Positions 1,121-40,048 of a stretch of 64,000 nucleotides of DNA are shown one piece after another (position 1 is the stretch's first letter; the number at the start of each line of letters is the position of its first letter). Location: NCBI RefSeq assembly GCF_030013595.1, contig NZ_CP122768.1; one strand, 5' to 3'. The stretch is from Escherichia coli. Its GTDB lineage: Bacteria; Pseudomonadota; Gammaproteobacteria; Enterobacterales; Enterobacteriaceae. Below the pieces are notes generated by a model. It saw nothing but the letters and a program-made list of their open reading frames with translations. It was not told the origin of the DNA and searched no databases. The position numbers and the translations under genes were made by a program.

Positions 1121-2287
1121 CTACTCAGTTTCCACCTCACAAGGAATTGTCCATTCAATTATAGTACCATTAACAGAGCTTTTGTAATCTCTAAGCACTT
1201 CGTTAATAATGCCAGTTTTCCCTTTGTAAATATAGCGCCCTTTTGATGAAAAAATCCCCATAAAACCATCACCTATTGAATCGATTACCGATTTGATATC
1301 ATTCAAGCCTTTACCTCGGTTCAGCTCCCCAGTCCTCGTTTCCTGAAGTAACGTGGAAGCCTTTATATAAGTAGAATCCTTTACATTTGCTAATGGAACT
1401 CTAAGTTTTTTGAAGATGTTCATTAGCACACTTACACCTTGTGTTTTAGGCAATGTTGAAGGTATTCCCACTCCTTTATCACATATTACCACTGTAAGAT
1501 TTTTGTCATGTATGCCAGCAAAGGTCCACCACTTAGCTGTTTCGTCATCTTCCGTATGCATTAAATCATCAACATAAGCATGCTCGACAGAATTAGACAT
1601 GGCCTCAGTAAAGCCACGGTATAATTTTTTTGATGATTTTCTTTCTAACTCTTTTTTTATTTCCACCATCATTTCTTTTGCTAAAAGAGGCTCAGAACAA
1701 GAACCTGATGTATATTTCCAAAAAGTCACATCATCATAACTTTCAGTTTCTCTTTTAGGTTTCCTTAATAGATCATAGAAACCGACTTGATTCAAAATGC
1801 TTTCAATTTTCTTGTCTTTCGGATGTGAAAACCCTATGGCATTTACTCCAAATTCACTTTTCTTAATAAGCACATCAACTTCAGCGAGAAAAGATAACAT
1901 AGCAGCTGCACTTATATATTTAGTTGAAGAAAAATCTATATAAACACGATTATTCTTCAACACGCAATCGCGTAAATTATTTAAAAATTTATTCATGATT
2001 TCAAAATCACGATCGTTGTAATAATTAATAGATATCGGAGCAGAAAAAACCACCCTTTTATTACTTGTTGTCAACTTTTTCTTCGAGACTCGTAGCTTAC
2101 GAGTGCGTTTGTAATATTCCAGTTTTCTCTTCGCATTTTCTACTCCTTCCCAATCCGTGCTTTTCAGAGAATTAAATATCCCCCTCTTCAGTTTCGAAAC
2201 TTGCCCGCGATAGTTTAGTTTTTGAACTTTTCTTCTTTTTTGCAGATTCATAAATATTTTCACATTTGATAACATCGCAGATATCAT
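1121..2287 (-). CDS. GHKL/HATPase_c-type ATPase (anti-sigma-factor-kinase-like) with basic N-terminus and a STAS-like middle region; first gene of cargo operon
   Basis: 388-aa ORF; Bergerat-fold motifs read from translation: N-box-like EAMSNSVEHAY, G1-like VVICDKGVGIP, G2-like NRGKGLNDIK, then GT motif; middle region RVYIDFSSTKYISAAAMLSFLAEVDVL resembles STAS; AT-rich. Confidence 0.65.
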   Translation of the reverse strand: MISAMLSNVKIFMNLQKRRKVQKLNYRGQVSKLKRGIFNSLKSTDWEGVENAKRKLEYYKRTRKLRVSKKKLTTSNKRVVFSAPISINYYNDRDFEIMNKFLNNLRDCVLKNNRVYIDFSSTKYISAAAMLSFLAEVDVLIKKSEFGVNAIGFSHPKDKKIESILNQVGFYDLLRKPKRETESYDDVTFWKYTSGSCSEPLLAKEMMVEIKKELERKSSKKLYRGFTEAMSNSVEHAYVDDLMHTEDDETAKWWTFAGIHDKNLTVVICDKGVGIPSTLPKTQGVSVLMNIFKKLRVPLANVKDSTYIKASTLLQETRTGELNRGKGLNDIKSVIDSIGDGFMGIFSSKGRYIYKGKTGIINEVLRDYKSSVNGTIIEWTIPCEVETE

Positions 2288-2657
2288 ATTTCACATGAAA
2301 AATTTTTTGTAGCCCCTCCATCAAAGAAAATCGCTGCCTTTATCAAAAACATTTCGAAATTGTCAGCAACTTAACGTCCCCCCACCCCAACAGTAAAATT
2401 GATCCCACTAGCTCAAGTGAAAGTCACCCCGTAACATCCTGTTGATACCCAGCGCCTGCGCTTTCGCTCTTACAGCATAACAAGAACGATCGATCCCCCA
2501 TATGCTTTCTACCGTCAACGTGCCTACACACTGACCTGAGTGCCATGATTTCCCTCATGCATAACCTGTTCACCGAATATCTCTCGAAAACCATTCTGGT
2601 AAAACGCCAGTACGCGCTGCATAGCTTCGCTCCTCCGACACTCGCGACAGATTATGT

Positions 2658-2999
2658 TCAGACGCCTGTCATAGCGGCGTATTTCTCCGTCTGGTAATGA
2701 ATAAACCAGGTCCGGGTCGCTCTTTTTTTCACTGCTGCTTTCGACATCTTTTTGCGGGCCTTTATCCAGTCCTTACGTGCCTGTTCAGACGGAAATAACC
2801 CGTAGCCGGAGTTGTATAAATCGCCACTGGCAACCAGCTCTCTGGCAAGAACACTCATCAGATACCTTGTCGCACCTGTCTTAGCTTCCAGTTGTCGTAA
2901 CGTCTCGCGCCCACTCTGGTGCACGAGCTCAACAACCTTCCCCTTAATTTTTTCCCGCTCTTCTTGTGTAAATACTTTTGCCATAAGCGCCTCCGGCAA
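2658..2999 (-). CDS. phage hypothetical protein
   Basis: 113-aa ORF directly downstream of and co-directional with the replication-module genes; no recognisable motif. Confidence 0.45.
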   Translation of the reverse strand: MPEALMAKVFTQEEREKIKGKVVELVHQSGRETLRQLEAKTGATRYLMSVLARELVASGDLYNSGYGLFPSEQARKDWIKARKKMSKAAVKKRATRTWFIHYQTEKYAAMTGV

Positions 3000-3770
3000 T
3001 CACTTTTCCGATGCAACATGGCGGGAAGAATCAGTAATCTGTCGTACAATATCCCTGTGCTTGTTCAACTCACGCAGCGCGGCGCAGACACGCTCCCACT
3101 TCTGGGCATGACTTTTCGCCCGGCGCAGTTCGCGGTTTGCCATATGCAGCGATGGTAAAATCAGGCCATCAGCTCGTGTTTCAGTGAACGATGGCAGCGA
3201 CTGCACAATGTCCGCCACAGTTTCTGTTTTAATATCTTCCTGTGTTGCAGCTTCCTGTACTGGTAACGCAACACTTGCTGGCTGAGGAAAGGCTTTACCA
3301 TCAGTTTCCGCTACCAATGCAGCTTTCGGCTCTGCTGGTAAATTATCGCCCGGTATGCAGTAGCGAAATTTACCGTTCTGGTTTACGCGTGCCAGCCGCC
3401 CCGTTGCGGTTACTACCGCCAGCGTGGAAGCAACCTTGCGAGTGCTGACACCGAACTTACCCGCCAGTTCCTCACACGTTTTAGCTCCCTCCTGACCGAT
3501 AAACTCAATCATCATGTCAGCGGTAACTTTTCGTTCGACCTCCCTGGTTAGCACATCCTGTACTTCAGATTGTGCTGGCTGCTCTTCGGCTACCCCTGAT
3601 TCACCTTCGCCAGCCACACGCCAGGTGTATACGCTTTTATCAACGAAGCCAGCCTTTTTCAGTTCCCACAGCTCGTTCAGTACTTCTTCACGACTGATAT
3701 CAAGTCGCGCAGCCAGCTCTACCGACGTGGCTTTTCCCATCGCTTTCAGTGCGTCAAAAACGGTCTCCAT
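3000..3770 (-). CDS. phage DNA-binding protein, winged-helix-like (YdaW-position gene, appears full length)
   Basis: ORF 3000..3821; likely start at internal Met [30 protein letters not shown] (HTH-like); follows the ydaV-like gene. Confidence 0.5.
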
Positions 3771-8514: not shown

Positions 8515-8790
8515 ATGATTACCAATTATGAAACCACTGTTGTAACTACCGATGACATTGTTCACGAGGTGAATCTGGAAGGAAAGCGCATTGGCTACGT
8601 AATTAAAACAGAAAATAAAGAAACCCCATTCACTGTGGTTGATATCGATGGTCCATCAGGCAACGTAAAAACACTTGATGAAGGTGTCACAAAAATGAGC
8701 CTGGTTCACATCGGAAAGAATCTGCCCGCAGAAAAAAAAGCCGGATTTCTGGCAACTCTGATCGCAATGAAATTAAACGGTGAAATCTGA
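8515..8790 (+). CDS. racC: Rac prophage protein RacC
   Basis: 91 aa from MITNYETTVV...; matches remembered RacC. Confidence 0.8.
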   Translation: MITNYETTVVTTDDIVHEVNLEGKRIGYVIKTENKETPFTVVDIDGPSGNVKTLDEGVTKMSLVHIGKNLPAEKKAGFLATLIAMKLNGEI

Positions 8791-8889
8791 AAAAAAGAAA
8801 GCCTGCACTGTGTGCAGGCCTGAGTGAAGAACCTGGGACATTTATTCATCACTCGCAGTAATTTTAATCTGAGTTGAGGTTAAAAAACA

Positions 8890-11541
8890 ATGAGCACAAA
8901 ACCACTCTTCCTTTTACGGAAAGCGAAAAAATCATCCGGTGAGCCTGACGTCGTCCTGTGGGCAAGCGACGATTTTGAATCAACCTGTGCCACTCTGGAC
9001 TACCTGATCGTTAAGTCAGGTAAAAAACTGAGCAACTATTTTAAAGCTATTGCAACTAATTTTCCTGTCGTTAATGACCTGCCCCCTGAAGGTGAGATCG
9101 ATTTTACCTGGAGTGAACGCTATCAACTCAGCAAAGACTCCATGACATGGGAACTAAAACCGGGAGCAGCGCCAGACGACGTTCACCACCAGGATAATGC
9201 TCAAGAAACCAACGAACTGGCGGGAGGCCAGGAAGAAAACGCGCAGGCAGACGCCCACGAGGATTGCCAGGATTGCGAAGTCTCTGTAGCCACTTTGCGG
9301 TTCACACAGCGTCTTCTGCACATTTTTACGTATGCAGCCGGGGATCGGAAATACCTGCATCATGCCACCCGTGAACAACGCAAACACATTACTGCTCTTG
9401 AGATGGATCAGGAAAACAGCTATGTCCAGAATCTGCTGTTGGCCATACGCAGCATGGCAGAACCGACAACTCTGGATAATGCCGCCCTGCTCCGCCTGAC
9501 TGATGCAATTAAGGCAGTGTTCTCTATCACGAAAAAACATCAGCCCTATGAATTTAAGAATTTCATTTCAGCCTGGCTGGATACCGAACACATTGATCGC
9601 GGTCTTCTGACAAAAGAATGGCGAAAAGGAAATCGTGTTTCACGCATCACGCGCACGGCTTCCGGCGCTAATGCTGGCGGCGGAAACCTCACCGATCGCG
9701 GCGAAGGTTTCGTTCACGATCTGACGTCACTGGCGCGCGACGTAGCCACTGGCGTACTGGCTCGTTCAATGGACGTGGACATTTATAACCTTCATCCGGC
9801 ACACGCTAAACGTGTCGAGGAAATTATCGCTGAAAATAAACCACCCTTTTCTGTTTTCCGCGACAAATTCATCACCATGCCTGGTGGGCTGGATTATTCC
9901 CGCGCCATCGTGGTTGCGTCCGTAAAAGAAGCACCAATTGGGATCGAGGTTATCCCCGCACACGTCACCGAATATCTTAACAAAGTACTGACTGAAACTG
10001 ATCATGCCAACCCTGATCCAGAAATCGTGGATATTGCCTGCGGTCGTTCCTCTGCCCCGATGCCGCAGCGTGTAACAGAAGAAGAAAAACAGGATGATGA
10101 AGAAAAACTGCAACCATCTTGCGCAATGGCAGATGAACAGGCAACGGCTGAAACAGTGGAACCGGATGCAACTGAACATCATCAGGACACGCAGTCGCTG
10201 GATGCTCAGTCACAGGTAAATTCTGTTGATGCGAAATATCAGAAACTGCGGGCAGAACTCCATGAAGCCCGGAAAAACATTCCGCCCAAAAATCCTGTCG
10301 ATGCAGACAAATTACTGGCTGCCTCTCGCGGAGAATTTGTTGAAGGGATTAGCGACCCGAATGATCCGAAATGGGTTAAGGGGATCCAGACCCGCGATTC
10401 TGTGTACCAGAACCAGCCAGAAACGGAAAAAACCAGCCCGGATGTGAAACAACCTGAGCCAGTAGTGCAACAGGAACCGGAAATAGTCTGCAATGCCTGC
10501 GGTCAGACTGGCGGGGATAACTGCCCTGACTGTGGTGCAGTGATGGGCGACGCAACATACCAGGAAACATTCGGTGAAGAGAATCAGGTTGAAGCTAAGG
10601 AAAAAGATCCGGAGGAAATGGAAGGCGCTGAACATCCGCACAATGAGAATGCTGGCAGCGATCCGCATCGCGATTGCAGTGATGAAACTGGCGAAGTCGC
10701 AGATCCCGTAATCGTAGAAGACATAGAGCCAGGTATTTATTACGGAATTTCGAATGAGAATTACCACGCGGGTCCCGGTGTCAGTAAGTCTCAGCTCGAT
10801 GACATTGCTGATACTCCGGCACTGTATTTGTGGCGTAAAAATGCCCCCGTGGACACTACAAAGACAAAAACGCTCGATTTAGGAACCGCTTTCCACTGCC
10901 GGGTACTTGAACCGGAAGAATTCAGTAACCGCTTTATCGTAGCACCTGAATTTAACCGCCGTACAAACGCCGGAAAAGAAGAAGAGAAAGCGTTTCTGAT
11001 GGAATGCGCAAGCACAGGAAAAACGGTTATCACTGCGGAAGAAGGCCGGAAAATTGAACTCATGTATCAAAGCGTTATGGCTTTGCCGCTGGGGCAATGG
11101 CTTGTTGAAAGCGCCGGACACGCTGAATCATCAATTTACTGGGAAGATCCGGAAACAGGAATTTTGTGTCGGTGCCGTCCGGACAAAATTATTCCTGAAT
11201 TTCACTGGATCATGGACGTGAAAACCACAGCGGATATTCAACGATTCAAAACGACTTATTACGACTACCGCTATCACGTTCAGGATGCATTCTACAGTGA
11301 CGGTTATGAAGCACAGTTTGGTGTGCAGCCAACTTTCGTTTTTCTGGTTGCCAGCACAACTGTTGAATGCGGACGTTATCCGGTTGAGATTTTCATGATG
11401 GGCGAAGAAGCAAAACTGGCAGGCCAGCAGGAATATCACCGCAATCTGCGGACCCTGGCTGACTGCCTAAATACCGATGAATGGCCAGCTATTAAGACGT
11501 TATCACTGCCCCGCTGGGCTAAGGAGTATGCAAATGACTAA
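8890..11541 (+). CDS. recE: exodeoxyribonuclease VIII (RecE), full length
   Basis: 883-aa ORF; N- and C-terminal regions match remembered K-12 RecE ([22 protein letters not shown]... and ...[13 protein letters not shown]); Cys cluster [16 protein letters not shown]. Confidence 0.9.
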
Positions 11542-12367
11542 GCAACCACCTATCGCAAAAGCCGATCTGCAAAAAACTCAGGGAAACCGTGCACCAGCAG
11601 CAGTTAACGATAAGGATGTGCTGTGCGTGATTAACAGCCCGGCAATGAAAGCGCAACTGGCAGCAGCTCTGCCACGTCACATGACAGCGGAACGCATGAT
11701 CCGCATTGCTACAACAGAAATCCGTAAAGTACCGGAACTAAGAAACTGTGACTCGACGAGTTTTATCGGTGCCATCGTACAGTGTTCACAGCTCGGACTT
11801 GAGCCAGGTAGCGCCCTCGGTCATGCATATCTGCTACCGTTCGGCAACGGAAAAGCAAAAAACGGTAAGAAGAACGTACAGCTGATCATCGGTTATCGCG
11901 GCATGATCGACCTTGCCCGTCGATCAGGTCAAATCATCAGTCTGTCAGCTCGTGTTGTCCGTGAATGTGATGAATTCAGCTATGAACTTGGTCTTGATGA
12001 AAAACTGGTTCATCGTCCCGGTGAAAACGAAGATGCCCCTATAACCCATGTCTATGCTGTTGCAAAACTGAAAGACGGAGGAGTGCAGTTTGAAGTCATG
12101 ACCCGCAAACAAGTAGAAAAAGTTCGCGACACACACAGCAAGGCGGCAAAAAACGCAGCGTCAAAAGGGGCGTCGTCCATCTGGGATGAACACTTTGAAG
12201 ACATGGCCAAAAAGACAGTGATACGAAAACTGTTCAAGTATCTGCCGGTATCTATTGAAATCCAGCGTGCAGTATCGATGGATGGAAAAGAGGTGGAAAC
12301 AATTAATCCAGACGACATATCGGTTATAGCCGGGGAATACAGTGTAATCGATAATCCAGAAGAATAA
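11534..12367 (+). CDS. recT: RecT single-strand annealing protein
   Basis: Start [23 protein letters not shown] overlapping recE stop by 8 nt; strong match to remembered RecT. Confidence 0.92.
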
Positions 12368-12411
12368 TCCAGCCTGGCGGTGTAATGCACCGCCAATGTG
12401 AGATAGTTTTT

Positions 12412-12618
12412 ATGACAAAAACTTTGAGATATGACGATGTTAAACCATGTCCGTTTTGTGGTTGTCCATCAGTAACGGTGAAAGACATTTCAGGATATTA
12501 CCGGGCAAAATGCAACGGATGCGAATCCCGAACTGGCTATGGTGGAAGTGAAAAAGAAGCGCTCGAAAGATGGAATAAACGAACCACTGAAAATATTAAT
12601 GGAGGCGTTCATGTATAA
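12412..12618 (+). CDS. ralR: restriction alleviation protein RalR (Lar)
   Basis: MTKTLRYDDVKPCPFCGCPSVTVK... matches remembered RalR. Confidence 0.85.
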   Translation: MTKTLRYDDVKPCPFCGCPSVTVKDISGYYRAKCNGCESRTGYGGSEKEALERWNKRTTENINGGVHV

Positions 12619-12799
12619 AATTACCGCTACAATTGAAAAGGAAGGTGGCACTCCTACTAACTGGACAAGATATTCAAAATCTAAACTAACGAAATCAGAA
12701 TGCGAAAAAATGCTCTCAGGTAAAAAAGAAGCAGGCGTTTCCAGAGAGCAGAAAGTAAAACTGATAAATTTTAATTGCGAGAAACTTCAGTCCTCGTGA
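12611..12799 (+). CDS. ydaC: Rac prophage small protein YdaC (RcbA)
   Basis: 62-aa ORF MYKITATIEKEGGTPTNW... with GGAGG Shine-Dalgarno; overlaps ralR stop. Confidence 0.7.
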   Translation: MYKITATIEKEGGTPTNWTRYSKSKLTKSECEKMLSGKKEAGVSREQKVKLINFNCEKLQSS

Positions 12800-12898
12800 A
12801 TTGCATTGTATTCAAATTAAAACTTCATAGCTGATTATTAATAATCAACATCAGGCGTCAATTTCAGTCTAACATTGGCGCCTGCCAGAGGTGATGCG

Positions 12899-13114
12899 AT
12901 GGCACAAGTAATCTTTAATGAAGAGTGGATGGTTGAATACGGCCTGATGCTTCGCACTGGTCTGGGGGCCAGACAAATTGAAGCATACCGCCAGAACTGT
13001 TGGGTGGAGGGCTTCCACTTCAAACGAGTATCTCCTTTAGGTAAGCCAGACAGCAAACGAGGGATTATCTGGTACAACTATCCAAAGATAAATCAGTTTA
13101 TCAAAGACTCATGA
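12899..13114 (+). CDS. xisR: Rac prophage excisionase
   Basis: [35 protein letters not shown]...; immediately upstream of the integrase. Confidence 0.8.
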
Positions 13115-13115
13115 T

Positions 13116-14351
13116 ATGTCTAAATTACCAACAGGTGTCGAGATTAGAGGTAGAAACATTCGCATCTGGTTCATGTTTCGAGGAAAACGATGTCGGGAAA
13201 CATTAAAAGGCTGGGAGATTACAAACAGTAATATTAAAAAGGCCGGAAATTTAAGAGCGCTGATAGTTCATGAAATAAACTCCGGTGAATTTGAGTATTT
13301 AAGACGTTTTCCCCAGTCCAGCACTGGGGCAAAAATGGTGACAACGAGAGTCATAAAAACGTTCGGGGAGCTTTGTGATATATGGACAAAAATTAAAGAG
13401 ACAGAGTTAACAACAAACACAATGAAGAAAACGAAATCACAATTAAAAACACTCAGAATAATAATTTGTGAAAGTACCCCGATATCATATATTCGTTATA
13501 GCGATATCTTAAACTACCGGAATGAACTGCTGCATGGAGAAACGCTTTACCTGGATAATCCAAGATCCAACAAAAAAGGAAGAACCGTGCGCACAGTTGA
13601 TAACTATATCGCCCTTCTCTGTTCGCTGTTACGTTTTGCGTATCAGTCGGGATTTATATCAACCAAACCATTTGAAGGAGTAAAAAAATTACAGCGAAAC
13701 AGAATAAAGCCTGACCCGTTATCTAAAACAGAATTCAATGCATTAATGGAAAGTGAAAAAGGACAGAGCCAAAACTTGTGGAAATTTGCCGTTTACTCCG
13801 GGCTTCGTCACGGGGAACTGGCAGCTCTTGCGTGGGAGGATGTGGATTTCGAGAAGGGAATTGTGAATGTCAGAAGAAACCTGACGATACTGGATATGTT
13901 CGGTCCCCCAAAAACAAATGCCGGGATCCGGACGGTAATATTACTGCAGCCTGCTCTTGAAGCACTGAAGGAGCAATACAAACTGACCGGGCATCATCGC
14001 AAAAGCGAAATCACCTTTTATCATCGGGAGTACGGCAGAACCGAAAAGCAAAAACTGCATTTTGTTTTCATGCCCAGGGTGTGTAACGGAAAACAGAAAC
14101 CTTATTACTCGGTAAGCAGTTTGGGGGCAAGGTGGAATGCAGCAGTAAAACGTGCTGGTATTCGCCGCCGTAATCCGTACCATACGCGGCATACATTTGC
14201 CTGCTGGCTGTTGACGGCAGGAGCGAACCCGGCATTTATAGCCAGCCAGATGGGGCATGAAACTGCGCAGATGGTGTATGAAATTTACGGTATGTGGATT
14301 GATGACATGAACGACGAACAGGTAGCCATGTTGAATGCGCGGCTATCGTAG
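13116..14351 (+). CDS. intR: Rac prophage tyrosine integrase
   Basis: 411-aa ORF with C-terminal catalytic region (..RHTFACWLL..HETAQMVYEIY..). Confidence 0.92.
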   Translation: MSKLPTGVEIRGRNIRIWFMFRGKRCRETLKGWEITNSNIKKAGNLRALIVHEINSGEFEYLRRFPQSSTGAKMVTTRVIKTFGELCDIWTKIKETELTTNTMKKTKSQLKTLRIIICESTPISYIRYSDILNYRNELLHGETLYLDNPRSNKKGRTVRTVDNYIALLCSLLRFAYQSGFISTKPFEGVKKLQRNRIKPDPLSKTEFNALMESEKGQSQNLWKFAVYSGLRHGELAALAWEDVDFEKGIVNVRRNLTILDMFGPPKTNAGIRTVILLQPALEALKEQYKLTGHHRKSEITFYHREYGRTEKQKLHFVFMPRVCNGKQKPYYSVSSLGARWNAAVKRAGIRRRNPYHTRHTFACWLLTAGANPAFIASQMGHETAQMVYEIYGMWIDDMNDEQVAMLNARLS

Positions 14352-21904: not shown

Positions 21905-23419
21905 TCAGGATGATTTATTCATAGCAGGAACCAACAAAAATGCGATAAATAACAGACCACTGATTAGCAGAAAGGTATCCGAAAATGCCATAGTTTGCGC
22001 CTCCCTCAGCATCAATTGACTCAATAATTTGGTTGAAGCCAGTATTTCCGATGTCTGGTCACTTCCACTGCGATTAAAAAACAAAGCACTTCTGGAAATG
22101 AAGTCATTCACCGTATGGGGAACAGAAACCATTTTTTCACCCATTCTCGAAAAATGAAAATTAGTTCGATTATTGAGAATAGAGCCACACAGGGCAATAC
22201 CAATCGCGCCCCCAAGATTACGTGTTAAATTAAATACACCAGAGGCTAACTTCAGCCGTTCTTTTGGAATTCCCCCCAGCGTTAATGTTACGATGGGGGC
22301 CATCGCAAACTGCTGCGAAATCCCTCTAATTGCCTGTGGAAACAGTAACTCCTGCCATCCCCATTCGTGGGTTATAGGGGTAAAAAGATACATTGAAAAC
22401 ACAAATCCACCCAGCCCCGCCATCAACAGCCATCGCAGATTTATTTTTTTACTTAACCAGAAGTAAAAGGGAACAGAAAATAACTGGAAAATACCTGTTG
22501 TGCAAACGGCAAAACCTATCTCTTCGGCATTTAATCCGCGAACCTGCCCCAAAAACACAGGTATTAAATATACAGTAGAGAATATCCCAACCCCTCCAGA
22601 AAAAGAAAAAAAGCATCCCAGCGTGAAATTTTTATCCTTAAAAGCATGAAGATCCATTATCGGATTGGATATTGTAAGTGTACGCGCAGCAAATAAAATA
22701 AAACTCACCAATGCCAGAACTGATGTCAGCAAAATAGTATTATCATCCAGCCATCCCCAGCGCGCTCCTTCTTCAAGGGTATATTCCAGACATCCCAGTG
22801 TCATGGCCAACAGGATAATACTCGGATAATCAGCAACTTTCAGTAAAGAGAGATCAGGTTTATCAAAATTAACCAGAAAAGGAATACTCAAAACTAAATA
22901 TATGCCAGGTAATATATTGATATAAAATAGCCATCGCCAGTCGAGGTTATCAGTGATCCAGCCCCCCAGAGTTGGCCCTAGCGTCGGTGACAGTGAGGCC
23001 AGCGCACTGACTACCGCAGCAGCCACCCCCAACTCTTTACCCTGGTAATAAATAAACGCCGTCGTGAAAACTAAAGGGATCATGGATGCGCCAGCCGCTC
23101 CCTGTAAAGCACGAAACAAAATCATGATCTGAATATTCCATGCAAGTCCACACGCGATACTCATTAAAGTAAATATTCCCGCGGATAGAGTAAAAAGCCA
23201 ACGAGTGGAAAATACCCGTGACAGCCACCCAGAGAGCGGAATAACAATAATCTCAGCAATTAAATAGCTGGTCTGAAGCCAGGCCATTTCGTCTTTACCT
23301 GCGGACAGACCACCACCTATTTCATTTAGGGATGACGATACAATTTGAATATCAAGCTGAGCAATAAATAATCCCATACACATACTGGCGAAAGCAATAT
23401 GTTTACGCATAGACATCAT
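21905..23419 (-). CDS. MFS drug-efflux transporter, EmrB/QacA-like (14-TMS type)
   Basis: 504-aa highly hydrophobic ORF with typical MFS features; start overlaps the stop of the upstream fusion-protein gene. Confidence 0.8.
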   Translation of the reverse strand: MMSMRKHIAFASMCMGLFIAQLDIQIVSSSLNEIGGGLSAGKDEMAWLQTSYLIAEIIVIPLSGWLSRVFSTRWLFTLSAGIFTLMSIACGLAWNIQIMILFRALQGAAGASMIPLVFTTAFIYYQGKELGVAAAVVSALASLSPTLGPTLGGWITDNLDWRWLFYINILPGIYLVLSIPFLVNFDKPDLSLLKVADYPSIILLAMTLGCLEYTLEEGARWGWLDDNTILLTSVLALVSFILFAARTLTISNPIMDLHAFKDKNFTLGCFFSFSGGVGIFSTVYLIPVFLGQVRGLNAEEIGFAVCTTGIFQLFSVPFYFWLSKKINLRWLLMAGLGGFVFSMYLFTPITHEWGWQELLFPQAIRGISQQFAMAPIVTLTLGGIPKERLKLASGVFNLTRNLGGAIGIALCGSILNNRTNFHFSRMGEKMVSVPHTVNDFISRSALFFNRSGSDQTSEILASTKLLSQLMLREAQTMAFSDTFLLISGLLFIAFLLVPAMNKSS

Positions 23420-27923: not shown

Positions 27924-29368
27924 TGCAGGAAATCTATCGTTTTATCGACGATGCGATTGAAGCCGATCGCCAACGTTATACCGATATTGCCGATCAAATC
28001 TGGGATCATCCAGAAACACGTTTTGAAGAGTTCTGGTCAGCGGAGCATCTGGCTTCGGCGCTGGAGTCTGCAGGCTTCACCGTTACCCGCAACGTAGGCA
28101 ATATCCCAAATGCCTTTATTGCTTCGTTTGGTCAAGGCAAACCGGTTATCGCCCTGCTGGGGGAATATGACGCCCTGGCAGGTTTAAGTCAGCAAGCAGG
28201 TTGCGCGCAACCTACATCCGCGACGCCCGGTGAAAATGGTCACGGTTGCGGACACAATTTGCTGGGAACCGCCGCCTTTGCCGCAGCAATAGCCGTCAAG
28301 AAATGGCTGGAACAATATGGGCAAGGCGGCACGGTGCGCTTTTATGGTTGTCCTGGCGAAGAAGGCGGCTCGGGTAAAACGTTCATGGTCCGCGAGGGGG
28401 TATTTGATGATGTGGATGCGGCACTCACCTGGCACCCGGAAGCCTTTGCCGGTATGTTCAATACCCGCACGCTGGCAAACATTCAGGCATCATGGCGCTT
28501 TAAAGGGATCGCAGCACATGCCGCGAACTCCCCTCATTTGGGACGCAGCGCCCTTGATGCCGTAACGTTGATGACCACTGGCACCAACTTCCTCAACGAA
28601 CATATTATTGAAAAAGCGCGCGTACACTATGCCATCATAGATAGCGGCGGGATCTCGCCCAACGTGGTCCAGGCGCAGGCAGAAGTGCTTTATCTTATCC
28701 GCGCCCCCGAAATGACCGATGTGCAGCATATTTATGATCGGGTCGCCAAAATCGCCGAAGGTGCGGCATTGATGACCGAAACCACGGTTGAATGCCGCTT
28801 CGACAAAGCCTGTTCCAGTTATCTCCCGAATCGCACCTTAGAAAATGCCATGTACCAGGCCCTATCCCATTTTGGTACTCCGGAATGGAACTGCGAAGAA
28901 CTGGCTTTTGCGAAACAAATTCAGGCTACGCTCACCCCCAACGATCGGCAAAACAGTCTGAATAATATCGCTGCAACCGGTGGCGAAAACGGCAAGGCTT
29001 TTGCACTACGTCATCGTGAAACGGTACTGGCGAATGAAGTCGCTCCATATGCCGCCACCGATAACGTGCTTGCGGCATCGACTGATGTCGGCGACGTCAG
29101 TTGGAAACTGCCTGTTGCCCAGTGTTTCAGCCCCTGCTTTGCCGTCGGTACCCCGCTACATACGTGGCAACTGGTTAGCCAGGGGCGAACATCTATTGCT
29201 CATAAAGGAATGCTGCTGGCGGCGAAAACTATGGCAGCAACCACACTTAATCTCTTCATTGATTCAGGGCTATTGCAAGAATGCCAACAAGAGCATCAGC
29301 AAGTTACGGACACGCAACCGTATCACTGCCCTATCCCGAAAAACGTGACACCGTCACCTTTAAAATAA
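27923..29368 (+). CDS. abgB: p-aminobenzoyl-glutamate hydrolase subunit B (M20 peptidase)
   Basis: 481-aa ORF, translationally coupled to abgA. Confidence 0.9.
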   Translation: MQEIYRFIDDAIEADRQRYTDIADQIWDHPETRFEEFWSAEHLASALESAGFTVTRNVGNIPNAFIASFGQGKPVIALLGEYDALAGLSQQAGCAQPTSATPGENGHGCGHNLLGTAAFAAAIAVKKWLEQYGQGGTVRFYGCPGEEGGSGKTFMVREGVFDDVDAALTWHPEAFAGMFNTRTLANIQASWRFKGIAAHAANSPHLGRSALDAVTLMTTGTNFLNEHIIEKARVHYAIIDSGGISPNVVQAQAEVLYLIRAPEMTDVQHIYDRVAKIAEGAALMTETTVECRFDKACSSYLPNRTLENAMYQALSHFGTPEWNCEELAFAKQIQATLTPNDRQNSLNNIAATGGENGKAFALRHRETVLANEVAPYAATDNVLAASTDVGDVSWKLPVAQCFSPCFAVGTPLHTWQLVSQGRTSIAHKGMLLAAKTMAATTLNLFIDSGLLQECQQEHQQVTDTQPYHCPIPKNVTPSPLK

Positions 29369-33816: not shown

Positions 33817-34059
33817 GATGTAATCCTTGTGCAGACAAATTTCTTGTTACCTAAACGTAACAATACCATGACATTTTACCGTTGTCTGCTCTGAAAACCT
33901 CACCTCTTAGCTGGATTTACAATCAACGCATTGATTAGTTAGCTAATGTTGCTACTTCCTTCCCTGACTATTGATGATCTGAATGAATTGTCGCGGTAAA
34001 ATAGCCCCGCCAGGGGTTTCCGGCATGACGACAATTATCTGGAGGAGCCTGATAAAACA

Positions 34060-36812: not shown

Positions 36813-36842
36813 AAATGCAAACAACTTCCATCAAAAAAGTGA
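36813..36842. repeat. 30-bp element AAATGCAAACAACTTCCATCAAAAAAGTGA, copy 1 (upstream of mppA)
   Basis: Exact 30-nt identity with 39924..39953; contains dyad ATG-N11-CAT. Confidence 0.9.
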
Positions 36843-37091
36843 CAAAGGAAGCATCAAATGTTTTAAGTATCAATATATCAAATCAGATTTAGTGTAAATA
36901 ATAGTCTCCAAAATGCGGTAAAGCACATAGAACTCCGAACACTACGTTCGGGCTTCGCACGTTCAAACCCGTTTTCGGTATCATAATCAGCATCTGTCGC
37001 CATTGTACGAAGAATAAAAAATGACCAAAACGTTGAAAGGAACTGAGAATACGTTAAGAGAAGAATTAAATTAATGTATCAGCAAGTAGTG

Positions 37092-37991
37092 CTAAACAGC
37101 ACCTTTATACTTCAGCCTATCTATAAATAATGAGAATGCCGAGCCAGCATGTCGACGGTGTGGATAGTACAGGTGATAACCGGGTAAATCTGGTGTGAAT
37201 TTATCCAAAACACGTATCAGTTTTTTTTCTTTAATAGCCCGCTCAACCTGATCATAAGGTAGATACGCCAATCCATGCCCATCAATTGCAGCATCAATGA
37301 TCAGGTCTATCGTATTCAGTAAAAGCTGACCTTCCATGCGAACACGAACTTCACGTCCACCGCGTATTAATCTCCAGCGATTTGCTGTACCCGATGTGGG
37401 AAGATACAAATTAATTGCCTGATGATCTATTAATTGTGACACTGACGTTGGAGCACTTCGACGAGAAAAATAATCCGGTGAGCCAACAATAGCCATTGGT
37501 ATATCTGGCCCGATTCGAATGGCGATCATATCTTTATCCATCTCCCCACCCAGACGGACGCCTGCATCAAAACGTTCAGAAACGACATCGGTCAAACCAT
37601 AATCAATGGTAAGCTGGATATCAATTTCAGGATGCGATTTCAGGAATGTGCGCATAGCTGGTAACAATATCGTTTTTGCTGCATGTTCTACAGTAGTAAT
37701 ACGTATTGTCCCGGATGGGCGGTTCTGCAGATCGCTCAGGGATGTCAGGGCAGAATCTATGTCATGCAACATAGGGCCAAGAACAGACAAAAGATGCTCG
37801 CCCGCTTCAGTGGGTACAACGCTGCGCGTGGTTCGCGTCAGAAGCCGCAATCCCAATCGTTCTTCTATACGGCGCACTATCTGGCTTAAAGCTGACTGCG
37901 CCATGCTCAGGCGGGCTGCTGCGCGAGTGAAGCTACGCTCCTCTGCAACGACGACAAACGCCATCAGATCAGCGATTTCTTCACGCTTCAT
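37092..37991 (-). CDS. pgrR: LysR-family regulator PgrR (YcjZ)
   Basis: 299-aa ORF with LysR HTH in conserved position between mppA and ycjY. Confidence 0.85.
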   Translation of the reverse strand: MKREEIADLMAFVVVAEERSFTRAAARLSMAQSALSQIVRRIEERLGLRLLTRTTRSVVPTEAGEHLLSVLGPMLHDIDSALTSLSDLQNRPSGTIRITTVEHAAKTILLPAMRTFLKSHPEIDIQLTIDYGLTDVVSERFDAGVRLGGEMDKDMIAIRIGPDIPMAIVGSPDYFSRRSAPTSVSQLIDHQAINLYLPTSGTANRWRLIRGGREVRVRMEGQLLLNTIDLIIDAAIDGHGLAYLPYDQVERAIKEKKLIRVLDKFTPDLPGYHLYYPHRRHAGSAFSLFIDRLKYKGAV

Positions 37992-38128
37992 TCAGTATCT
38001 CCATACAATCTATTAATCATTTAAATGATAGGTCTAATCATAATTTAGGGTCTAATCAACTTAATGATCAATATCTATAGTGATATCACCAACCGTCAAA
38101 ACGAACCGACAACTCCATGAGGAACGGA

Positions 38129-39049
38129 ATGATGAATAATAAAGTCAGCTTCACTAACAGCAATAATCCAACCATCTCTTTGTCTGCAGTGATCTATTTC
38201 CCTCCAAAATTTGATGAAACCCGTCAGTATCCGGCAATTGTGGTATCTCACCCAGGTGGGGGCGTTAAAGAGCAAACGGCTGGAACCTATGCCGAAAAAC
38301 TGGCGGAAAAGGGATTTGTCACTATTGCTTATGACGCATCTTATCAAGGTGAAAGCGGCGGCGAGCCGCGTCAGTTAGAAAACCCATACATTCGTACTGA
38401 AGACGTCAGTGCCGTGATTGATTACCTGACAACGCTTTCTTATGTCGACAATACCCGAATTGGTGCGATGGGAATTTGTGCCGGTGCAGGATATACAGCC
38501 AATGCTGCAATTCAGGATCGCCGCATCAAGGCCATCGGTACTGTTAGTGCGGTCAATATTGGTTCGATGTTCCGTAATGGTTGGGAAAACAATGTGAAAT
38601 CTATTGATGCCCTACCATACGTTGACGCGGGTTCAAACGCCCGAACCAGCGATATTAGTAGCGGAGAATACGCCACTATGCCACTGGCACCAATGAAGGA
38701 GTCCGATGCGCCGAACGAAGAACTGCGTCAGGCCTGGGAGTATTACCACACCCCTCGCGCGCAGTATCCAACAGCACCGGGTTACGCTACTTTGCGCAGC
38801 CTTAACCAGATTATTACCTATGATGCTTACCATATGGCGGAAGTGTACCTGACTCAGCCGATACAGATTGTGGCGGGCAGCCAGGCAGGGAGCAAATGGA
38901 TGAGTGACGACCTGTACGATCGAGCATCAAGCCAGGATAAACGCTATCACATTGTTGAAGGCGCAAACCATATGGATCTTTATGACGGCAAAGTCTATGT
39001 GGCTGAAGCAATTTCAGTATTAGCTCCGTTCTTTGAGGAAACTCTGTAA
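38129..39049 (+). CDS. ycjY: alpha/beta hydrolase YcjY
   Basis: About 306 aa; dienelactone-hydrolase-like. Confidence 0.85.
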   Translation: MMNNKVSFTNSNNPTISLSAVIYFPPKFDETRQYPAIVVSHPGGGVKEQTAGTYAEKLAEKGFVTIAYDASYQGESGGEPRQLENPYIRTEDVSAVIDYLTTLSYVDNTRIGAMGICAGAGYTANAAIQDRRIKAIGTVSAVNIGSMFRNGWENNVKSIDALPYVDAGSNARTSDISSGEYATMPLAPMKESDAPNEELRQAWEYYHTPRAQYPTAPGYATLRSLNQIITYDAYHMAEVYLTQPIQIVAGSQAGSKWMSDDLYDRASSQDKRYHIVEGANHMDLYDGKVYVAEAISVLAPFFEETL

Positions 39050-39119: not shown

Positions 39120-39758
39120 ATGAAAAATGTACTGATTCTTGGTGCTGGCGGTCAGATAGCCCGCCATGTGATTAATCAACTGGCAGATAAACAAACCATT
39201 AAACAAACTTTATTTGCCCGTCAGCCAGCAAAAATCCACAAACCCTATCCCACTAATAGCAAGATTATTATGGGGGATGTACTGAATCATGCAGCACTGA
39301 AGCAGGCCATGCAGGGACAGGATGTTGTGTATGCCAACCTTACGGGGGAAGATTTAGATATTCAGGCAAATTCAGTGATCGCTGCGATGAAAGCCGGTGA
39401 TGTTAAACGTCTGATCTTTGTTCTTTCCCTCGGTATTTATGATGAAGTTCCAGGAAAATTTGGCGAATGGAATAATGCAGTTATTGGTGAGCCCCTAAAA
39501 CCATTCCGCAGGGCTGCGGATGCAATTGAGGCTTCTGGACTGGAATATACAATTCTTCGCCCTGCCTGGCTGACTGATGAAGATATTATTGATTATGAGC
39601 TTACCTCACGCAATGAACCATTCAAAGGTACGATCGTATCACGTAAGAGTGTCGCTGCATTAATTACAGATATCATCGATAAACCTGAGAAACACATTGG
39701 TGAGAATATAGGCATCAATCAACCCGGGACTGATGGTGATAAGCCATTCTTCATGTAA
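39120..39758 (+). CDS. NAD(P)-binding Rossmann-fold protein (ymjC-position gene)
   Basis: 212-aa ORF with N-terminal GAGGQIA dinucleotide-binding motif. Confidence 0.7.
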   Translation: MKNVLILGAGGQIARHVINQLADKQTIKQTLFARQPAKIHKPYPTNSKIIMGDVLNHAALKQAMQGQDVVYANLTGEDLDIQANSVIAAMKAGDVKRLIFVLSLGIYDEVPGKFGEWNNAVIGEPLKPFRRAADAIEASGLEYTILRPAWLTDEDIIDYELTSRNEPFKGTIVSRKSVAALITDIIDKPEKHIGENIGINQPGTDGDKPFFM

Positions 39759-39923
39759 ATCAATTATATAGCTACCATCGTACTGTACTATGTGCAGTAC
39801 GATTTATTAAACTTATTAAGGTGAACTGATCAATTAGATGCGATTAACATGTGTAGAACCAGTAAGAATAAAATACGCCATGTATATAACATTACGACAA
39901 TTCTAATATCTGCACATCAATGA

Positions 39924-39953
39924 AAATGCAAACAACTTCCATCAAAAAAGTGA
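39924..39953. repeat. 30-bp element AAATGCAAACAACTTCCATCAAAAAAGTGA, copy 2 (upstream of mpaA)
   Basis: Exact 30-nt identity with 36813..36842. Confidence 0.9.
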
Positions 39954-40048
39954 TACAAGATCGATAACATAGCGTTGAAGAAAAGGATTTGATAATCCGC
40001 AAAATTTGCACAACACTGCCTGTAATACTTCCTGAACCAGAGACGATC

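Follow-up and report, generated by a model that had tools for sequence, protein, structure and literature searches.

In the classical divergent operator of a LysR-type regulator, the recognition site lies near −65 and carries a T-N11-A dyad, and activation sites lie near −45 to −25. Such an operator overlaps the promoter of the regulator's own gene, as in sites 1-3 of BenM/CatM and in the operators of CbnR and OxyR. The operator sequences of AphB from Vibrio cholerae and of CrgA from Neisseria meningitidis differ from the motif in the pgrR-ycjY spacer of Escherichia coli that is the subject of this study. Both proteins are LysR-type regulators like PgrR, and PgrR aligns with them over its full length (AphB: 3szp, E 9e-31; CrgA: 3hhg, E 7e-30); they are its nearest solved structures.

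PgrR controls genes for the breakdown of peptidoglycan peptides (ycjY-SDR-mpaA) and has been reported to be a repressor of its target operon, not an activator. According to RegulonDB, its regulon consists of ycjY-ymjDC-mpaA, ycjG and ycjXF-tyrR. Genomic SELEX has ycjY/ycjZ among the targets of PgrR, and in DAP-seq the pgrR promoter was enriched 5632-fold by PgrR (Baumgart et al. 2021, as quoted in Supplementary Data 6 of Han et al. 2023); the value given for LacI at lacZYA in the same supplement is 4413. Knock-down of pgrR in PPTP-seq led to a significant increase of pgrR promoter activity (log2FC +0.97; Han et al. 2023). Negative autoregulation of pgrR was confirmed with a tunable-TF strain, and the authors noted that this fits the PgrR site already known from the promoter of pgrR. 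The response of the ycjY promoter to the pgrR knock-down (log2FC 0.60/0.28/0.34) was not significant. Binding of PgrR to the spacer and autorepression are, in other words, already published, and according to the published in vitro data the strongest PgrR site lies in the pgrR-ycjY spacer. In papers citing PgrR other than the primary one (Shimada et al. 2013, Genes Cells 18:123) no operator sequence is given, and a literature search with the promoter names ycjYp, pgrRp and ycjZp returned nothing relevant. The site described here is at the same locus and belongs to the same regulator as the published PgrR site of strain K-12 (Shimada, Yamazaki & Ishihama 2013; DAP-seq, Baumgart et al. 2021). In addition to what is published, we infer a reading as three sites (A, M and B) and an overlap with promoters; this base-pair model is a modest refinement.

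The window, that is, the whole stretch of E. coli DNA analysed here, has a length of 64,000 nucleotides, and 2.1 kb around the site are 100% identical to E. coli chromosomes annotated in RefSeq. The annotation of the identical record matches the divergent flanking genes, pgrR (−) and ycjY (+), that a sequence-only reading of the window had assigned (Table 1). The spacer between them has 137 bp and a GC content of 34%, and reads ...CTATTAATCATTTAAATGATAGGTCTAATCATAATTTAGGGTCTAATCAACTTAATGATCAATATCTATAGTGAT... in the window. Palindrome and repeats lie inside this spacer at a distance of 25-67 bp to the start codon of pgrR, the palindrome itself being located 25-38 bp upstream of the ATG. Direct inspection confirmed that ATCATTTAAATGAT at 38016-38029 is its own reverse complement and, as claimed before, a perfect 14-bp palindrome. 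The two copies of GGTCTAATCA (38031-38040 and 38049-38058) are indeed 100% identical, but their earlier description as tandem repeats has to be corrected: they are direct repeats with 18 bp from start to start, separated by the 8-bp gap TAATTTAG and not arranged head-to-tail. A further exact copy of GGTCTAATCA is not present in the 64-kb window.

Two more features of the spacer were absent from the sequence-only reading. TAATCA is present three times, at 38014, 38035 and 38053, and the dyad has an imperfect second copy, TAATCAACTTAATGAT (38053-38068), at a distance of 39 bp to the palindrome. Within a dyad, the centres of the half-sites are 10 bp apart, which is one helical turn; the distance from A to M is 21 bp and that from M to B 18 bp. 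The pattern ATCA-N6-TGAT has four matches in the 64-kb window, compared to 1.4 expected, and 8% of the shuffles reach four. Two of the four are in the pgrR-ycjY spacer, the others start at 33922 in the ynaJ-ynaI spacer and at 39941 upstream of mpaA. The match in the divergent ynaJ-ynaI spacer, ATCAACGCATTGAT at 33922-33935, is probably due to chance. Neither the ycjG-tpx spacer, a reported PgrR target, nor ydjE with its upstream region, a secondary SELEX target, contains ATCA-N6-TGAT, and because both are devoid of it there is no regulon-wide motif behind the half-site assignment.

Table 1 Coordinates of genes, proposed sites and predicted promoter elements at the pgrR-ycjY locus of the window.
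Feature	Position	Strand	Basis
pgrR (ycjZ), coding sequence of a LysR-type regulator	37092..37991	-	RefSeq annotation of 100% identical E. coli record; Pfam HTH_1 and LysR_substrate
ycjY, coding sequence (alpha/beta hydrolase)	38129..39049	+	Annotation; Pfam hydrolase families
ycjY as gene 1 of the divergent ycjY-SDR-mpaA operon			Annotation
Conserved 70-bp control block enclosing all sites	38012..38081	.	Identity of orthologous spacers
Site A, perfect palindrome ATCATTTAAATGAT, candidate for the primary recognition site of PgrR	38016..38029	.	Sequence; conservation
Predicted pgrR −10 TATCAT, right palindrome arm	38025..38030	-	Consensus scan, 9/12 with −35 TAGACC (38054-38049)
Repeat 1 GGTCTAATCA, with middle half-site ATCA (38037-38040) as proposed site M	38031..38040	+	Repeat search
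A/T-rich inter-repeat spacer, polymorphic within E. coli (TAATTTAG in the window, TGATTTTG in K-12)	38041..38048	.	E. coli alignment
Repeat 2 GGTCTAATCA, predicted back-to-back −35 hexamers and left half-site of site B	38049..38058	+	Conservation; promoter scans
Site B, imperfect dyad ATCAACTTAATGAT (ATCA-N6-TGAT), candidate site for the second dimer of PgrR, over ycjY −35/spacer	38055..38068	.	
Predicted ycjY −10 TATAGT, with −35 TAATCA (38053-38058) 17 bp upstream	38076..38081	+	Relaxed sigma-70 scan; invariant CTATAGT

Orthologues were collected by a scan with the PgrR protein in one genome per species. pgrR-ycjY modules were returned from Citrobacter, Kluyvera, Pseudocitrobacter, Shimwellia, three Serratia and a MAG (84-88% protein identity), and the same scan gave cryptic Escherichia (99%) and one relative (58%). 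Comparison of E. coli with the other genera gave an identity of just 32-42% at four-fold degenerate sites of pgrR, which means saturation at neutral positions; several of the lineages are saturated with respect to each other, too. The block 38012-38081, in contrast, is 81-90% identical to E. coli in nine orthologous spacers from about six other genera. The edges of this phylogenetic footprint are sharp: the pgrR leader (37992-38011, the 20 bp next to the start codon) has an identity of only 15-30% in the spacer alignment, and the synonymous sites are far below the block, too. The identity of the ycjY leader (38082-38116) is 49-69%. Inside the block, the palindrome is identical in nine of ten orthologues, with a single substitution in the tenth, and repeat 2 in eight of ten. 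Repeat 1 is conserved to 70-80% and reads AGTCCAATCA in other genera; for site B the identity is 71-93%, and its TTAATGAT arm is largely invariant. The predicted pgrR −10 TATCAT is invariant in the alignment, as is CTATAGT (38075-38081) in 11 out of 11 sequences, with variable bases on either side.

A protein search for more distant orthologues did not extend the footprint: the best 120 matches listed had identities of 87-98%. In the 58%-identical orthologue (L010), which is divergent to a YcjY-like gene, a different perfect 14-bp palindrome, TTGTTAATTAACAA, is found at the equivalent place (2948-2961, ~47 bp upstream of the start codon). The recognition-helix region of this orthologue appears PgrR-like by eye, but the sequence of the palindrome differs. 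At this locus the geometry is kept, the sequence is not. Among the matches listed, proteins with ~88% identity to PgrR came from many genera of Enterobacterales, with Klebsiella, Raoultella, Enterobacter, Citrobacter, Salmonella, Kluyvera, Pantoea and Serratia among them; some of the proteins are annotated on plasmids. The full pgrR-ycjY arrangement was confirmed in loci from Citrobacter, Kluyvera, Pseudocitrobacter, Shimwellia and Serratia. Six of the E. coli spacer matches are on plasmids. The patchy distribution suggests horizontal transfer.

Within the species, 5222 of 5426 complete E. coli genomes carry the spacer, with an identity of 95-100%. SNPs in five aligned intact spacers of E. coli and Escherichia are located at 38003, 38031, 38042, 38047 and 38096, and the palindrome is free of them; in one E. 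coli strain, repeat 1 reads AGTCTAATCA. K-12 differs from the window by four bases of the spacer, which leave palindrome and repeats untouched. Between the repeats, the window carries a minority allele, ATAATTTAGG compared to ATGATTTTGG in K-12. A natural deletion was seen in E. coli ET358 (locus L019), which extends from inside repeat 1 into ycjY (~38039-38338 equivalent). Repeat 2, site B and the 5′ end of ycjY are lost, the palindrome is kept.

A scan with the sigma-70 consensus gave TAGACC-18-TATCAT on the minus strand (38054-38049, 38030-38025). Shimada et al. 2014 give the same promoter for pgrR after SELEX with RpoD holoenzyme, which binds the pgrR-ycjY spacer; for ycjY they predicted another promoter, ATGATA-19-TCTAAT. 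According to our predictions, repeat 2 would provide both −35 hexamers, TAGACC for pgrR (−) and TAATCA for ycjY (+), and the palindrome would span about −12 to +3 of pgrR as counted from the predicted start. These promoter hexamers could account in part for the conservation of repeat 2 and of the right arm of the palindrome, and the repeats need not be operator only. We discarded a role at the level of RNA, since neither of the two predicted starts would give a transcript with the complete palindrome.

The layout is that of a LysR operator in several respects. It is found in a divergent spacer upstream of a LysR-family gene, between the regulator and its target, and overlaps the predicted pgrR promoter. 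A dyad of high symmetry would be located at about −65 of the predicted ycjY promoter and over the predicted −10 of pgrR, weaker sites follow ~21 and 39 bp downstream, and the span of ~56 bp is typical of the footprint of a tetramer. With a predicted ycjY start near 38088, the centres of the sites would be at about −65.5 (A), −44.5 (M) and −26.5 (B). Unlike the classical T-N11-A dyad, ATCATTTAAATGAT is an even palindrome with T-N10-A and A-N12-T (ATC-N8-GAT), one base pair shorter; the dyad here is ATCA-N6-TGAT. Further differences are that PgrR is reported as a repressor and that the geometry is derived from predicted starts.

Taken together, we consider it likely, with a probability of roughly 75%, that the palindrome and the repeats make up the core of a divergent control region (38012-38081) that is compact and conserved and in which PgrR is bound over two back-to-back sigma-70 promoters. 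The earlier proposal had named an autoregulatory operator of PgrR, as a LysR-type protein, as the candidate, with a site for some other factor as the alternative. It gains support from the domains of the protein, from SELEX and DAP-seq, from the autoregulation and from the conservation across genera. The bases contacted by PgrR, the positions of promoters and starts and the model of a tetramer with bent DNA are what we infer in addition. One dimer of the PgrR tetramer would sit on the perfect dyad ATCA-N6-TGAT (site A), which would be the high-affinity recognition site. The second dimer would occupy the weaker site B, 39 bp away, or alternatively site M in repeat 1, and the A/T-rich spacer would bend between the two. 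By covering the predicted pgrR −10 (TATCAT) and the start, PgrR at site A would cause negative autoregulation by occlusion; at site B and repeat 2 it would lie over the −35 elements that the two promoters share and thereby repress ycjY-SDR-mpaA. Tight repression is plausible, because over-expression of YcjY leads to filamentation.

Could the symmetry have arisen by chance in AT-rich intergenic DNA, without any function? Perfect palindromes of at least 14 bp are not enriched in the 64-kb window (3 observed, 4.6 expected from first-order Markov simulations), the other two being intragenic (12832-12847 and 28198-28213). In simulations of a 137-bp spacer with 34% GC, such a palindrome had a probability of ~0.014 and a 10-mer direct repeat within 30 bp one of ~0.011, but both occurred jointly in only 5e-5 of the simulated spacers, a test that was post hoc. 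At the level of sequence, we regard conservation and not statistics as decisive for function. The near-perfect retention of the palindrome across genera with saturated neutral sites effectively refutes an origin by chance, and the strong experimental binding of PgrR reported for the spacer speaks against it, too. It is also unlikely that the motifs are the core elements of two overlapping divergent sigma-70 promoters and nothing else, the dyad and the repeats being a by-product and PgrR contacting other bases. TAGACC-18-TATCAT (pgrR) and TAATCA-17-TATAGT (ycjY) do overlap repeats and palindrome, and the published prediction for pgrR and the binding of RpoD holoenzyme in SELEX (Shimada 2014) are in line with this explanation. 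However, conservation extends without a break over 70 bp and takes in bases that have no promoter role, such as the left palindrome arm ATCATTT (38016-22) and TTAAT (38012-16), which are located on the downstream side of the −10 predicted for pgrR, and, within the spacer of the ycjY promoter, the TTAATGAT arm of site B. Moreover, the perfect dyad is held in lineages with saturated synonymous divergence, and the pgrR-ycjY spacer contains no other conserved candidate operator.

A different sigma factor would account for the repeats if GGTCTAA were the −10 element of RpoE, the sigma factor of envelope stress, and if conservation were the result of sigma-E-dependent transcription of ycjY and/or pgrR. 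GGTCTAA has six of the seven bases of GGTCAAA and resembles the −10 motif (T/C)GGTCAAAA (Rhodius et al. 2006), and RpoE holoenzyme binds the spacer in vitro, with a SELEX peak of 17.2-fold at ycjY/ycjZ, whose authors name pgrR and ycjY as known RpoE-dependent promoters. A canonical sigma-E promoter, with a GGAACTT −35 and a TCAAA −10 ~16 nt apart, was not recognised, as the −10-like GGTCTAA is devoid of a −35 partner: for neither copy is there a sequence similar to GGAACTT at a distance of 15-17 bp. The best full matches in the spacer have 8 of 12 bases (n=2), fewer than in shuffles (mean 4.9), and ycjY/ycjZ are unmentioned in the sigma-E regulon paper of Rhodius. In addition, repeat 1 reads GTCCAA in other genera, and the palindrome would be left unexplained. 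We hold this explanation to be rather improbable; sigma-E may be a secondary layer at the spacer. Binding mainly by another factor, such as UlaR or H-NS, is very unlikely. A DAP-seq peak of UlaR (57.5-fold) is present at the ycjY promoter, and according to the PPTP-seq supplement the activity of this promoter is raised by knock-down of ulaR in LB (log2FC 2.19) as well as by knock-down of hns (log2FC 0.88); the spacer has a GC content of 34%. The DAP-seq signal of PgrR (5632) is nevertheless ~100 times that of UlaR, which has many modest DAP peaks and responses in the dataset but is essentially a single-target regulator, at ula, in genomic SELEX. Consensus strings for Fur, CRP, IHF, ArcA, FNR, LexA, ArgR, TyrR, a NagC-like dyad, PurR, MetJ and OxyR matched the spacer no better than shuffles.

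Several other features of the window should be mentioned. A 37-nt direct repeat with 92% identity is present at 36813-36849 and 39924-39960, the first 30 nt, AAATGCAAACAACTTCCATCAAAAAAGTGA, being identical; none is expected by chance. The copies are upstream of mppA (−) and mpaA (+), both of which are murein-tripeptide genes. They have the same plus-strand orientation and hence opposite orientations with respect to mppA and mpaA. A match to ATCA-N6-TGAT, ATCAAAAAAGTGAT, is part of the mpaA copy. K-12 retains only the mppA copy, and the repeat is missing in other genera. Between ycjY and mpaA (39120-40048 region), the window has an intact gene for an SDR/NAD(P)-binding protein (212 aa). Of this gene, K-12 has only the remnants ymjD/ymjC, owing to a deletion that also took most of the spacer in front of mpaA; the intact version is covered to at least 80% in 2896 of 5426 complete E. 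coli genomes. An IS4-family ISVsa5 transposase gene (10809-12017) interrupts the nifJ gene (ydbK, pyruvate:ferredoxin oxidoreductase; 8634-13496), and a perfect 16-bp palindrome, TGATTATTAATAATCA, lies in the nifJ remnant at 12832-12847. A tnpA gene of the IS200/IS605 type adjoins paaY (1429-3040) and is followed by paaX and a helix-turn-helix gene, both of them truncated, which suggests that most of the paa cluster is lost in this strain. The gene for an efflux permease of the DHA2-family MFS (21964-23419), annotated as frameshifted, adjoins an HlyD-family gene and the gene for an AraC-family regulator.

A more far-reaching idea starts from the spacing of the sites, with M 21 bp from A and B 18 bp from M. 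PgrR could act as a three-position LysR switch, in which an effector, perhaps a murein peptide, slides the second dimer between M and B. The GGTCTAA half-sites would double as sigma-E −10 elements, and the occupancy by PgrR would select between sigma-70 and sigma-E polymerase at the ycjY and pgrR promoters. We regard this as speculative and improbable; if true, it would link envelope stress to the catabolism of peptidoglycan peptides. The PgrR operator as such is an ordinary and largely known regulatory site that matters little beyond annotation. The proposal at the level of base pairs, with ATCA-N6-TGAT dyads 39 bp apart, a half-site in the middle and two promoter positions, could guide mutagenesis and footprinting.
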